Virus record (IMG/VR): IMGVR_UViG_3300010356_003454
Span: 72,820-136,819 of that record
From: a virus
Taxonomy: Duplodnaviria > Heunggongvirae > Uroviricota > Caudoviricetes
Strand: one strand, 5' to 3'
DNA: 64,000 bases
A model generated the notes under the pieces. The model searched no databases. It saw nothing but the letters and a program-made list of their open reading frames with translations, and had not been told where the DNA came from. Every line of letters starts with the position of its first letter. The first letter of the stretch is position 1. Of the stretch, positions 50,497 through 53,049 are shown piece by piece. The position numbers were made by a program, and so were the translations under genes.

Positions 50497-50733
50497 ATGG
50501 CAGCTAAGATAGACTTAACCACAAAAAAGAGATTTCTGGAAATTCCAGAAAGAAAGAGATTTGGCTGGTCTCCCTATATGCAGGAAATTCTTAAAATCCA
50601 GTTTCCCCGTAATGCTGTTAAAGTAATGGCGCAGAAATCTGTTATTAGGGGAAAAAAATTATGCCTCTTTGGGAAGTTCATTTGGGATTATCAGATCGAA
50701 GTTGTTGATTACAAAGAATTTGTAAGGGAATAA
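50497..50733 (+). CDS. hypothetical protein
   Basis: ATG at 50497 downstream of the module. The tracked ORF begins earlier inside the module. Confidence 0.3.
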   Translation: MAAKIDLTTKKRFLEIPERKRFGWSPYMQEILKIQFPRNAVKVMAQKSVIRGKKLCLFGKFIWDYQIEVVDYKEFVRE

Positions 50734-50798
50734 TGGAAAAAAATCTTATCATAGTAAGGGGTTTGCCGGGCTCAGGATTTGGATATATAAAATAAAAA

Positions 50799-51617
50799 AT
50801 GCTTAAAAGAAATTGTCCATATTGTGATGCTGAAATTAAATATAGGAATGAAAAATCCTATAAATTTGCTATTAAGAATGAATCTGTTTGCAGGAGCTGC
50901 TCCGGGAAAATCAATACGTGGAATATTAGATTAAAGAACGGGGAAGCTAAAAATCCTTTTTTAGATAAAAACCACTCTAAAGAAGCTATTCAAAAAATGA
51001 GAGATTCACGGGCATCCAGGTCTGAAAAATATAAAACAGATGAATTTAGAAAAAATGTTTCTAAAGTAACTTCCGGAGAAAGAAATCCAATGTATGGAAA
51101 GAATTTAATGGATACTTGGATAGAAAAATATGGATTAGAAGAAGCATTAAAAAAGGAGAAAAGACGGAAACAAAAATTATCAAAAGCTTTTTCGGGGGAT
51201 AAAAATCCAATGTACGGTAGGGAAACCCCTAAAAAATCAGGTAAAGGAATTTCTGGCTGGTATGGAAGTTTTTATTTTAGAAGTTTGCATGAATTGAAAT
51301 TCATAATTTCCTGCGAACGATTCGGGTTAGAAATTTTATCTGCGGAGGACTTAAAAATACCATATAAAAATTATGATGGAACGGATAGAACATATTCTCC
51401 AGACTTTATTGTAGATAATAATTTTTTAGTTGAGGTCAAACCAAAAAAACTTTTCAAAACACCCTCTAATTTATTGAAATTTGATTCCGCAAAAAAATAC
51501 GCTTTAGAAAATAATTTAATCTTTAAAGTATTGGATTTTGGAATAATACTCAAAGATGAACTTAATAGATTGATAGAGTCGCAAGCAGTAAAATTAAATG
51601 TTGAATATGACTTATAA
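50799..51617 (+). CDS. putative homing-endonuclease-like nuclease (Zn finger + NUMOD3 repeats + C-terminal PD-(D/E)xK-like)
   Basis: CPYCD...CRSCSG Zn finger. Repeated NPMYGK/NPMYGR (NUMOD3). C-terminal SPDFIVDNNFLVEVK is PD...ExK-like. Confidence 0.4.
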   Translation: MLKRNCPYCDAEIKYRNEKSYKFAIKNESVCRSCSGKINTWNIRLKNGEAKNPFLDKNHSKEAIQKMRDSRASRSEKYKTDEFRKNVSKVTSGERNPMYGKNLMDTWIEKYGLEEALKKEKRRKQKLSKAFSGDKNPMYGRETPKKSGKGISGWYGSFYFRSLHELKFIISCERFGLEILSAEDLKIPYKNYDGTDRTYSPDFIVDNNFLVEVKPKKLFKTPSNLLKFDSAKKYALENNLIFKVLDFGIILKDELNRLIESQAVKLNVEYDL

Positions 51618-52032
51618 AAATGAAAATGGATCCCGCGAAAGATCTTTGATCATCGTTCGCGGGATCCCGTAACTGGGTTCGGGAAAAAGTACCTTTGCTA
51701 AGCTATTAGGTCGTGCAGTCTGTACCGCAGATGATTTTCATACTGATCGAGACGGAAATTATAACTGGAAGCCTGAAAATGTTGGCAGAGCTCATGAGTG
51801 GTGTAAGCGTAAGTGCAAGAGATTTATGAAGGCCGGAATTGAGACCATAATTATAGCTAACACTTCAACGACTGAGGATGAAATACGTCCATATATAATG
51901 ATAGCTAAAAATCATGGATATAGAGTGTTTTCGATTGTTGTTGAGAATAGACACGGGGGAGTAAATGAACACAATGTTCCTGAGGCCACTCTGGAAAAAA
52001 TGAAGAATAGATTTTCAATAAAACTGATATAA
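51607..52032 (+). pseudogene. polynucleotide-kinase-like P-loop kinase (AAA_33/Pnk-type) interrupted by in-frame TAA within the Walker A motif
   Basis: The reading frame gives ...SLIIVRGIP-TAA-LGSGKSTFAKLLGRAV...DDFHTDRDG...; the canonical form is hhhhRGxPGSGKST. The interruption behaves as a 6-nt insertion (TAACTG). The only ATG-initiated piece in the track (51826-52032) is the C-terminal third. Confidence 0.45.
51628..51667 (+). repeat. perfect 12-bp GC-rich inverted repeat (GGATCCCGCGAA / TTCGCGGGATCC) with 16-nt loop
   Basis: Arms at 51628-51639 and 51656-51667. The loop contains a TTG that could serve as a start codon (51646). An in-frame TAA follows 3 nt after the right arm. Confidence 0.7.
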
Positions 52033-52045
52033 AAATAATCTAAAA

Positions 52046-52261
52046 TTGATGGAAATGAAAAATAACACTTTTGTTCAGGAGAATGGAATGGTAATTGAAG
52101 AAGGGAAAAGATACAGATCTCTTGTTAGAGACCTTGTTTGGGTGAAGGAGATAAATCTTGAAAAGAACGAAATGCATTGTTACAATATTTCAGAATCCTG
52201 CAATTCCTGGCATAGGATATCTTCAGCTATTAAAGATAATAAATTCCGCAGTCAGGTATAA
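52046..52261 (+). CDS. hypothetical protein
   Basis: ORF. Confidence 0.3.
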   Translation: MMEMKNNTFVQENGMVIEEGKRYRSLVRDLVWVKEINLEKNEMHCYNISESCNSWHRISSAIKDNKFRSQV

Positions 52262-52263
52262 AA

Positions 52264-52803
52264 ATGAGTACAAAGATTTATAATGCATATTTATGGGATG
52301 GCACAGTTGAAGAACTGATGTCATTCCTTAAAGAGCTTCGAAAAAAGTATGCAGAAGAGGCAACTCTTCATCTTGTTCAATTTTCTGGATGGCTTAAGCA
52401 TAAGGAGGAGGAATATAAATCTGAAGGAAAATACTTCAGCCTTTCGATATATCTCAGGAGTTGCATAAATGCAGGACTTAATGAACCGGATAATCTTGAT
52501 GCTTCGGCTGCAGTGTATTTTCATCGCGGAAAAATTGCTCTTCAATTTTTTGGTTTTGAACTATTCTCTAGAGATGGTAAAAGACCTATGATGGAGCTGC
52601 TTCGTAGCGAGCCCAAACTCATCGAGTATGATTTCTGGAATAATGTTGATCAGCCGGAAGAACTAACAGAGGAACAATGGGACGATAGAAAAGACTTCTG
52701 GGATTTTCTTCAAGTTCCCTGCGAGGACGGTCTCATTTACGAATTCTCCTCACGAAATACACTATGGGAAATTATAAGCAACTATAGAGAAAAAACTCGG
52801 TAA
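52264..52803 (+). CDS. hypothetical protein
   Basis: ORF. Confidence 0.35.
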   Translation: MSTKIYNAYLWDGTVEELMSFLKELRKKYAEEATLHLVQFSGWLKHKEEEYKSEGKYFSLSIYLRSCINAGLNEPDNLDASAAVYFHRGKIALQFFGFELFSRDGKRPMMELLRSEPKLIEYDFWNNVDQPEELTEEQWDDRKDFWDFLQVPCEDGLIYEFSSRNTLWEIISNYREKTR

Positions 52804-52857
52804 GCATCATTGTAATTGCGAAAGATTTATTATATTTGAACATTAATATATGAAGCT

Positions 52858-53049
52858 ATGGTAAAGTTCTTAGTAAATATTCTCTCCTGGGTGCTTCTGC
52901 TTGCCGCCCTTGTATTTTTCATAGGTATCTTCTACTTCGTGATCGAGAAAGATTCCGATAATGCTTTTATTTGCGTCCTTTTAGGATGGACCAGCTACTT
53001 TTTAGGCTGGGGAGCTAGAAATTATTATCTCTTACTTAAAAACAAGTAA
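52858..53049 (+). CDS. small two-TM membrane protein (holin-like topology)
   Basis: 63 aa. Two TM helices. Charged C-terminus. Confidence 0.3.
   Translation: MVKFLVNILSWVLLLAALVFFIGIFYFVIEKDSDNAFICVLLGWTSYFLGWGARNYYLLLKNK

Follow-up and report, generated by a model that had tools for sequence, protein, structure and literature searches.

Programmed translational bypassing has until now rested on a single phage case, gene 60 of phage T4. In the survey by Manning and Atkins (2022, 10.1101/2022.08.31.505936), the homing endonuclease gene mobA and the gap in gene 60 are treated as one mobile element in which the gap blocks self-cleavage (with Bonocora et al. 2011 cited there), and the same text states that the bypass cassette 'remains unique'. 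The present analysis concerns a locus in a 64,000-nucleotide (nt) stretch of DNA from a virus of the class Caudoviricetes (IMG/VR record IMGVR_UViG_3300010356_003454, positions 72,820 to 136,819), referred to below as the window, in which an AAA_33 kinase gene has a mobile homing-endonuclease element (50778-51675) inserted among its Walker A codons. With the element comes a spare for what was cut off, namely a recoded second copy of the kinase N-terminus (beta-strand 1 plus R-G-I-P). Comparison with related sequences makes it probable that ribosomes cross the junction gap of this endonuclease cassette by a short programmed hop, and that the gap shields the cassette from being cut by its own enzyme. 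Literature searches found no description of this kinase cassette.

Hops over a stop codon are documented for synthetic constructs in Escherichia coli, in which matched codons flank the stop (Atkins et al. 2016, PMC5009743); on natural in-frame stop-hopping the same source states that 'no occurences are known'. Pairing of the messenger RNA (mRNA) as it leaves the ribosome has been proposed to drive forward bypassing (10.1101/2024.12.09.627546). The parts of the locus that enter the comparison with these systems are as follows, in window coordinates.

50733-50795, plus strand: stranded 5' end of the native kinase gene, MEKNLIIVRGLPGSG followed by element-derived FGYIK and a TAA stop (50793-95)
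50778-51675, no strand assigned: inserted mobile element of 898 nt, consisting of an AT-rich left leader, the endonuclease gene, the replacement N-terminus with its hairpin, and the 6-nt gap
50781-50798, plus strand: AT-rich left end of the element, GATATATAAAATAAAAA, ahead of the endonuclease ATG
50799-51617, plus strand: homing endonuclease gene, 272 amino acids (aa), with an N-terminal Cys4 motif, NUMOD3 motifs and a TnsA-like PD-(D/E)xK domain
51607-51669, plus strand: replacement kinase N-terminus, MTYKNENGSRERSLIIVRGIP, whose open reading frame (ORF) overlaps the 3' end of the endonuclease gene
51628-51667, plus strand: GC-rich hairpin with arms at 51628-51643 and 51652-51667 and an 8-nt loop
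51667-51669, plus strand: CCG proline codon, the proposed take-off codon, which would be in the P site when the stop is in the A site
51670-51675, plus strand: 6-nt coding gap TAACTG, consisting of a TAA stop (51670-72) and CTG (51673-75), the proposed landing triplet
51676-52032, plus strand: remaining kinase gene, GSGKSTFAKLLG... to IKLI, with its stop at 52030-32

The kinase frame that opens at ATG 51607, with a second in-frame ATG option at 51598, is translated as MTYKNENGSRERSLIIVRGIP-TAA(51670-72)-CTG(51673-75)-GSGKSTFAKLLGRAV... and ends at TAA 52030-32. Homologous kinases read ...RG[LI]PGSGKST without a break, so that TAACTG represents a 6-nt insert placed exactly in the Walker A motif, as the initial annotation, made from the window alone, had recognized. 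A contiguous GxxxxGK[ST] is not encoded in the window DNA, where TAA-CTG stands between Pro and Gly, and is restored only by skipping the 6 nt. Once these are removed, the protein reaches 47.9 bits against Pfam AAA_33 (cutoff 27, E = 2e-12), confirming the earlier assignment to the AAA_33 type of P-loop kinase, and also matches hundreds of phage 'ATPase/polynucleotide kinase' genes; the match to PHROG 2071 'ATPase' is at 1.7e-44, and 3850 kinase homologues were recovered, the best of them 93% identical. Comparison with orthologous genes showed the related kinases to be intact and to lack TAACTG. Within the window, the ORF check gave no in-frame ATG, GTG or TTG between the TAA and 51826. Other pipelines call just a 68-aa C-terminal kinase ORF, the equivalent of which in the window is 51826-52032.

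The break coincides with one end of the inserted element. Endonuclease-free relatives (L016, L017, L020, L021 and L023) align to the window in blastn as far as 50776/50777 and resume exactly at 51676, the GGT of GSGK, their own coordinates overlapping by 8-9 nt across the two blastn segments; the insert is therefore placed at 50778-51675, with TAACTG as its last 6 nt. Its borders form an imperfect 8-9 nt repeat (GGCTCAGGA on the left, GGTTCGGGA on the right), and the empty target site in L016-type sequence is GTAAGGGGTTTACCAGGTTCGGGTAAAAGCAC. The element is absent from the relatives L016-L024, constituting a presence/absence polymorphism at one precise site, and the closest kinases (91-93% identical, 130 aa) are uninterrupted and stand in the gene order 78 aa - kinase - 70 aa - 179 aa, without the endonuclease gene. 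The kinase part at 51676-52032 stems from the recipient phage, its protein being 92-96% identical to endonuclease-free alleles.

At the left border, the stranded native 5' end begins with ATG GAA AAA AAT CTT ATC ATA GTA AGG GGT TTG CCG GGC TCA GGA and then diverges, the DNA of 50733-50795 being near-identical to the starts of the intact kinases in L016, L020 and L023. The ATG of this fragment overlaps the stop of the upstream gene (TAATG), as it does in endonuclease-free relatives, and its own stop lies 3 nt before the endonuclease ATG, an arrangement that suggests translational coupling of the fragment and the endonuclease gene; the one role that the 15 stranded native codons now seem to have is to lead ribosomes into that gene. 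The replacement N-terminus encodes the native beta1-RGxP segment at only about 59% nucleotide match (manual count). What the initial annotation reported of the kinase was thus correct as an observation, while the context had been missed: the gene is split by an endonuclease element, its native 5' end lies about 900 nt upstream, SLIIVRGIP belongs to a replacement copy, and TAACTG is the right end of the element.

The endonuclease matches NUMOD3 (3e-11) and Tn7_TnsA-like_N (1e-9) in Pfam, and this combination of NUMOD3 motifs with a TnsA-like nuclease domain is the predicted make-up of a free-standing homing endonuclease. Homologues of the endonuclease number 108, and in 24 other loci they adjoin interrupted AAA_33 kinase genes. 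The ratio of nonsynonymous to synonymous substitution rates (dN/dS) of the endonuclease is 0.12-0.4, and the endonuclease exceeds the kinase in identity for both L113-L117 (85% versus 66%) and L032-L041 (89% versus 63%), indicating that an element more conserved than the genes around it has probably spread horizontally. The AT-rich left end of the element has a near-identical counterpart in L197 (~740-765), where GATATATAAAAATAAAAC-ATG precedes a 59%-identical endonuclease gene; the motif common to L197 and window positions 50781-50801 is GATATATAAAA(A)TAAAA(A/C)ATG, which may act as a promoter or translation-initiation signal for the endonuclease.

Among cultured phages, neither a near-identity DNA search with 50700-52900 nor the search for a full-length homologue of the endonuclease protein gave a match. 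The nuclease domain alone has cultured-phage matches, in the terminase large-subunit gene of Krischvirus-type phages, for example L192 (Shigella phage JK32, MK962753.1 89022-94324) and likewise phiS, TB34, kaaroe and G2494. This terminase gene is annotated as two overlapping coding sequences of 583 and 459 aa; here too, a related nuclease may have split or lengthened a gene for a P-loop ATPase.

The distribution of the arrangement was surveyed by scanning IMG/VR, JGI/ENA metagenomes and GTDB genomes with an alignment of endonuclease homologues, a cassette being recognized by RGxP...GxGK[ST], the two parts of which could be 0 to 9 nt apart. Including that of the window, 25 distinct gapped cassettes were obtained from IMG/VR, JGI/ENA metagenomes and one Saprospirales-binned contig. 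Each contains an N-terminal ORF that ends in a beta1-like strand and RG[VIL]P and then runs at once into a stop, and among cassettes the beta1 strand and RGxP of the replacement are kept through synonymous or conservative change. In the L042 clade the replacement is a copy of the whole native N-terminus (37-39 aa). The endonuclease gene may lie in tandem upstream or be divergent, and the P-loop is in every case directly adjoined by the hairpin-stop-gap module; nine loci have a native 5' fragment on the side of the endonuclease gene away from the module. Beside endonuclease homologues in 146 other loci, the search for a hairpin-plus-stop module returned only chance matches or terminators; the module belongs to AAA_33 kinase P-loops alone.

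One relative illustrates how far the parts can change while the arrangement stays the same. The P0060 kinase, 60% identical to that of the window, is listed with 'WL' in its P-loop, the W being a TGA read under an alternative genetic code; the contig DNA, just downstream of an endonuclease gene, is GCAACCCCC...GGGGGTTGC-CT-TGA-CTT-GGA AGT GGA AAA, so that the hairpin, the stop and the following triplet all differ from those of the window. For P0060 and P0230-P0232 (loci L025 and L193-L196), public gene calls give a spurious 142-aa protein with 'PWLGSGKS', in which TGA is translated as Trp.

The targets are very diverse AAA_33 kinases, and one is fused to a tRNA-ligase-type CPDase domain. The L042, L110, L113 and L117 clade has a longer target protein, which in L042 joins the AAA_33 kinase to a CPDase domain of the fungal tRNA ligase type. 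These assignments point to RNA-repair enzymes as a common target class, with which the presence of RNA ligase genes as neighbours would fit. The cassette L207 (CALAZP010000171.1) lies on a 23-kb contig binned to uncultured Saprospirales (Bacteroidota), a binning that offers a weak hint at phage host range.

Endonuclease-adjacent kinases without a gap (L107 and L132) are likewise without a strong hairpin. In L107 (Ga0209344_10113090, ~153 and ~1065), a native fragment MNKNFLIIVRGLPG-stop is followed by the endonuclease gene and a duplicate N-terminus, MNNNFLLVIRGLP, which is joined directly and in frame to GSGKTT with neither hairpin nor stop. This gap-less fusion implies that a duplicate N-terminus can work as a plain replacement, and L107 may represent an ancestral or a derived state of the cassette. 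Intact kinases with a long N-terminal extension resembling the cassette replacement (MKKNIENSNERTLIVVRGIPGSGKST) occur in L186 (P0028) and L189 (P0036); these loci use the codons CGT GGG ATT CCG, have no hairpin, gap or endonuclease gene, and may be a source of the replacement N-terminus or a product of cassette loss.

The GC-rich inverted repeat that had been noted just 5' of the stop is indeed perfect over 12 bp (GGATCCCGCGAA at 51628-39 and TTCGCGGGATCC at 51656-67), extends to 15/16 bp (51628-43 / 51652-67), and is separated from the TAA by 2 nt. Folding of the region as RNA gives -25 kcal/mol (z = -4.95), with 0 of 200 shuffles as good. No second repeat of this kind was found in the 64-kb window, and the exact arms are absent from IMG/VR. 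The codons used in the hairpin are rare in this 35% GC phage, CGC accounting for 4% of Arg, GGG for 13% of Gly and CCG for 14% of Pro codons. Within the stem, the 3' arm supplies the VRGI codons and reaches as far as the first base of the Pro codon; the in-frame TTG (51646-48), suggested earlier as a start codon sequestered by the hairpin, proves to lie in the loop and not in the stem. Four GATC palindromic hexamers (GGATCC, AGATCT, TGATCA, GGATCC) occur within 40 nt at 51629-51666. A special role for this cluster of BamHI, BglII and BclI-type sites was rejected: GATC is over-represented window-wide (342 occurrences where about 200 would be expected) and is clustered just as densely at ~56963, so that the hairpin cluster looks incidental.

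Across cassettes, the 3' arm is the RGxP coding sequence and the 5' arm lies in an N-terminal extension missing from native kinases. Stems were compared by anchoring on the 3' arm, which is fixed relative to the stop, and by using each sequence's own minimum-energy fold. A 9-bp stem ending on the first base of the Pro (take-off) codon is present in 25/25 cassettes, in fixed register, with compensatory pair changes at stem positions -1, -3, -4 and -7 and up to four pair types per position. When arms were exchanged between cassettes, the mean folding energy was -19.3 kcal/mol with a cassette's own upstream region and -10.5 with a foreign one (foreign arms at least 3 nt different), and in 23 of 24 cassettes no foreign partner equalled the cassette's own. 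The mean minimum free energy was -23.3 kcal/mol for cassettes (n=24) against -5.7 for native ungapped alleles (n=9). Alignment of 24 modules with MAFFT followed by RNAalifold did not recover the stem, the 5' arms being misaligned because loop lengths differ. It is the structure of the hairpin that is conserved.

The codon before the stop is CCG in 10, CCT in 14 and TCC in 1 of the 25 cassettes. The stop itself is TAA in 9, TGA in 13 and TAG in 3, with a sense codon in none, and close relatives carry different stops (L113 TAA and L117 TGA; L110 TAA and L042 TAG; L033 TAG, L035 TAA and L037 TGA). Since most single-base changes of a stop would give a sense codon and none is seen, the position is, as far as these sequences indicate, under selection to remain a stop even as one stop codon gives way to another. 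The stop is followed by C in 20 cassettes, G in 3, T in 1 and A in 1. In E. coli, a C-terminal Pro and a stop followed by C are known as the weakest contexts for termination. In the 69 long ORFs of the window, by comparison, Pro is the last sense codon in 1/69 and C follows the stop in 5/69, as against 24/25 and 20/25 in the cassettes.

The gap, including the stop, measures 5 nt in 4 cassettes, 6 nt in 18 and 7 nt in 3. The triplet before the first Gly codon is CCN in 8, CUN in 11, UCA in 1 and ACN in 5 (CCG then CUG in the window), and 20 of the 25 landing triplets can pair with the Pro anticodon NGG if G.U pairs are allowed. Beyond the gap, the kinase ORF is uninterrupted for 117-273 codons in every locus with a long enough contig, and the downstream frame is set by the Gly codon even in the 5-nt and 7-nt cases, where the N-terminal frame differs. 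At least 4 independent indel events fall within the ~6-nt gap, and 0 in the downstream ORFs.

Within-lineage variation provides a further view of the downstream gene. In the L025 lineage, the 69-nt module is invariant across 15 contigs, and the downstream 360 nt contain 5 synonymous sites versus 2 amino-acid changes and 0 indels. In 5 of 10 contigs compared, a deletion of ~267 nt has removed the left junction and the first ~80 endonuclease codons and left the kinase module unchanged (present in L193, L199, L202, L203 and L206, as compared with L197, L198, L200, L201 and L204). The deletion is found with two different upstream neighbourhoods, and the stranded native 5' fragment of this lineage is degenerate. 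This polymorphism points to purifying selection on the downstream kinase. A dead downstream gene, or the fresh pseudogene that the initial annotation had offered, is disfavoured by the comparative data on upkeep of the stop, termination context, gap-confined indels and synonymous bias. Pairwise kinase dN/dS is 0.12-0.22; its low value was rejected as proof of selection after the invasion, the reason being that cassettes move between alleles.

A short programmed hop would accommodate the observed architecture and mobility of the element, its hairpin and conserved stop, the variable gap and the intact ORFs beyond it. In the proposed mechanism, the gap at the exact junction of element and target would keep the rebuilt gene from re-forming the endonuclease target, thereby conferring self-immunity. 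During translation, peptidyl-tRNA-Pro on CCG would face TAA-C in the A site, where Pro followed by stop+C makes for poor termination, and tRNA-Pro would let go of the mRNA. The mRNA would then slip 6 nt forward (5-7 nt across cassettes), aided by the GC-rich hairpin as it re-zips on leaving the mRNA exit channel; with Pro in the P site the stem, whose 3' arm ends on the take-off codon, would be fully melted and poised to re-zip there. The fixed register of the stem relative to the take-off codon supports such a hairpin-driven forward slide. The tRNA-Pro would land on CUG, forming two G-C pairs and one G.U pair with an NGG anticodon, and decoding would restart at GGU through Gly-tRNA to give ...VRGIPGSGKST..., a normal P-loop. 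A hairpin-aided hop over the stop was one of several options listed in the initial annotation and is now the best supported of them, with the crossing itself and the immunity role of the gap being what we infer from the comparisons.

Several points weigh against a hop. Translation across the gap is deduced entirely from sequence, and so is the pairing with a presumed NGG anticodon of the host tRNA-Pro. The landing CUG of the window mismatches the take-off CCG at the middle base, and in five cassettes, including all four with 5-nt gaps, the landing triplet is ACA or ACU, which would form at most 2 pairs with the departing tRNA; because these pair so poorly, what sets the landing frame is left unexplained. 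Synthetic stop-hops are inefficient (about 1%). The key stem-loop of gene 60 includes or follows the take-off codon, so that a stem lying wholly 5' is a less established stimulator, and Manning and Atkins (10.1101/2022.08.31.505936) found the 5' stem-loop of gene 60 to be poorly conserved. Finally, the within-lineage test of selection on the kinase comprises 7 changes only (binomial P about 0.013), and kinase divergence mostly predates the invasion, as the cassette is usually more conserved than its kinase.

Set beside T4, the kinase cassette shares with mobA and gene 60 the joint travel of a homing endonuclease gene and a non-coding gap as one mobile element, insertion at a single fixed spot of a conserved enzyme gene, carriage of a replacement, recoded stretch of the target gene, a stop that opens the gap right after the take-off codon (in 25/25 kinase cassettes), persistence of the gap module when the endonuclease gene decays, and self-cleavage immunity as the proposed role of the gap. 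There is, however, no sequence homology between the two. The kinase cassette targets an AAA_33 P-loop and uses a NUMOD3/TnsA-like nuclease, whereas gene 60 encodes a topoisomerase and MobA is an HNH nuclease; the gap spans 5-7 nt, whereas that of gene 60 has about 50 nt and an internal Shine-Dalgarno sequence; the take-off codon is Pro (CCN) and not Gly (GGA); and the stem lies wholly 5' of take-off, ending on its first base, whereas in gene 60 it includes the take-off codon. In the kinase cassettes, unlike gene 60, the landing codon is often only partly matched and the bypass would come after about 21 codons of the ORF; an N-terminal duplicate makes the gene whole again, whereas the T4 system is expressed as two subunits. 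By this comparison of sequences, the kinase cassette is considered analogous to, and not homologous with, the T4 system.

Other described systems correspond in part. Like synthetic stop-hops, the cassettes would yield a single amino acid from two similar codons with a stop between them, and eight are exactly Pro-stop-Pro; unlike the engineered cases, they have a conserved hairpin, include 5-nt and 7-nt gaps, and often land on CUN or ACA. In Aeromonas phage Aeh1, nrdA is split by mobE, a free-standing homing endonuclease gene inside a conserved enzyme gene whose function is thought to be retained, as in the kinase cassette; as summarized in 10.1101/2022.08.31.505936, though, the nrdA halves are translated separately and reassemble, while the kinase cassette supplies a duplicate N-terminus and its first fragment is a 20-aa remnant. 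The mitochondrial 'byp' elements of Magnusiomyces capitatus (PMC5009743) differ in their length of 27-55 nt, relaxed mitochondrial decoding, lack of a link to an endonuclease and lack of a conserved 5' hairpin. On balance, opinion tips slightly towards the kinase cassettes being the first natural family of short 'stop-hop' bypass elements, in which a 5-7 nt gap, peptidyl-tRNA-Pro, a re-zipping hairpin, a P-loop-targeting endonuclease and a spare 5' end would together make an independently evolved second counterpart of gene 60.

Alternatives to the hop were weighed against the same evidence. It is considered unlikely that the element is a selfish gene-killing insertion, in which translation truly ends at the stop after 21 residues, only the element profits from hairpin, stop and gap (in target-site immunity, expression control or DNA-level recognition, for example), and the downstream ORFs are intact since the invasions are recent. 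Conservation of the cassette beyond that of its kinase, with the frequent horizontal homing this implies, would fit such an insertion, as would the 92-96% identity that the window kinase still shows to endonuclease-free alleles, the probably accessory nature of the kinase gene, and the absence of a start codon after the stop. What gene killing leaves unexplained is that the position is always a stop with identity drifting among TAA, TGA and TAG, that the replacement keeps beta1-RGxP at the protein level or even a full 39-aa native-like N-terminus, and that indels occur only in the gap and in none of the 25 downstream ORFs. Nor does it account for mostly synonymous polymorphism while the endonuclease gene decays, or for a termination context of the weakest type, unlike the real stops of this phage.

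Conventional recoding is rated as improbable. Under it, 6-nt gaps would be crossed by near-cognate readthrough and 7-nt and 5-nt gaps by +1 and -1 frameshifting, respectively, with two extra residues tolerated in the P-loop. The context of Pro and stop+C would be leaky for readthrough as well, and from the sequences every gap length could in principle give a two-residue insertion, by different events. In prfB, which encodes RF2, the programmed frameshift is a +1 shift in which a purine-rich Shine-Dalgarno-like run lies 2-3 nt before the shift codon, the stop is a weak UGA-C, and the P-site tRNA re-pairs forward. AGGGGAG-NN-CCU-UGA-C in the cassettes resembles the prfB site AGGGGG-UAU-CUU-UGA-C in its purine-rich run, weak-context stop and forward re-pairing; yet +1 is the wrong frame for 6-nt and 5-nt gaps, and no hairpin is involved in prfB. 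Three mechanisms would be required for homologous cassettes. Plain readthrough, which the initial annotation had entertained, does not hold as the common mechanism because gap length varies and the 5-nt and 7-nt gaps of homologous cassettes shift the frame. Slippage of tRNA-Pro by -1 from CCG to ACC or GCC would be poor, and a two-residue insert would put Pro in place of the first Gly of GxxxxGK[ST]; such an insert is seen in none of the 120 best homologues listed except P0060, where W is the TGA of the alternative code. No suppressor or other tRNA was found in the 64-kb window, and the hairpin register would be left unexplained.

RNA-level removal, with either the 898-nt element or the short gap spliced out as a group I or II intron or other ribozyme and the native 5' fragment joined to GSGKST, seems very improbable. 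In its favour, a perfect ORF would result if the element were excised precisely, nine loci keep the native 5' fragment, and introns often carry endonuclease genes. An Rfam scan of 50600-51900, however, gave no match to an intron or other RNA family even at E <= 10; only ~80 nt of the element are non-coding; no register gives group I boundaries (a U preceding the 5' splice site and a G preceding the 3' one); and the endonuclease gene occurs in both orientations. The L025 lineage, moreover, has a degenerate native 5' fragment and an invariant replacement N-terminus, and an intron needs no protein-conserved copy of its 5' exon.

Equally hard to credit is a two-piece kinase, which the initial annotation had also listed, or reinitiation, in which a 21-aa peptide and a separately started C-terminal piece assemble non-covalently. 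Endonuclease-split genes whose products reassemble are known from Aeh1 nrdA and T4 genes 39/60. Against this, the second piece has no start codon: the 150 nt after the stop contain no in-frame ATG, GTG or TTG, the post-stop codons CUG, CUA, CCA and ACA are unusable as starts, and a free 21-aa strand with a P-loop opened between Pro and Gly would make an unlikely enzyme. A sequencing or assembly artefact, likewise listed earlier, is refuted, since the site is identical in five contigs (L011-L015) from different samples, assemblers and pipelines and the design recurs in 24 divergent cassettes. An intein, which would need to be inserted in frame with no stops between its exteins, was rejected as a candidate: a TAA at 50793-95 closes the 5' fragment, and the endonuclease has an ORF of its own.

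The programmed hop thus being the preferred reading, its consequences can be set out. At a practical level, gene callers now truncate such kinases to a 68-aa fragment or read TGA as Trp. If the hop is real, the kinase cassettes would be only the second natural family of such bypass after T4 gene 60, unrelated to it and much simpler, and their 25 natural variants in gap length, stop, landing codon and stem would provide a ready mutational series on mRNA release and landing, as well as a test case for mRNA pairing at the exit channel driving forward sliding. It would further suggest that endonuclease immunity repeatedly selects for translational bypassing, and would support a general rule by which selfish endonucleases are shielded by inserts that ribosomes must skip.

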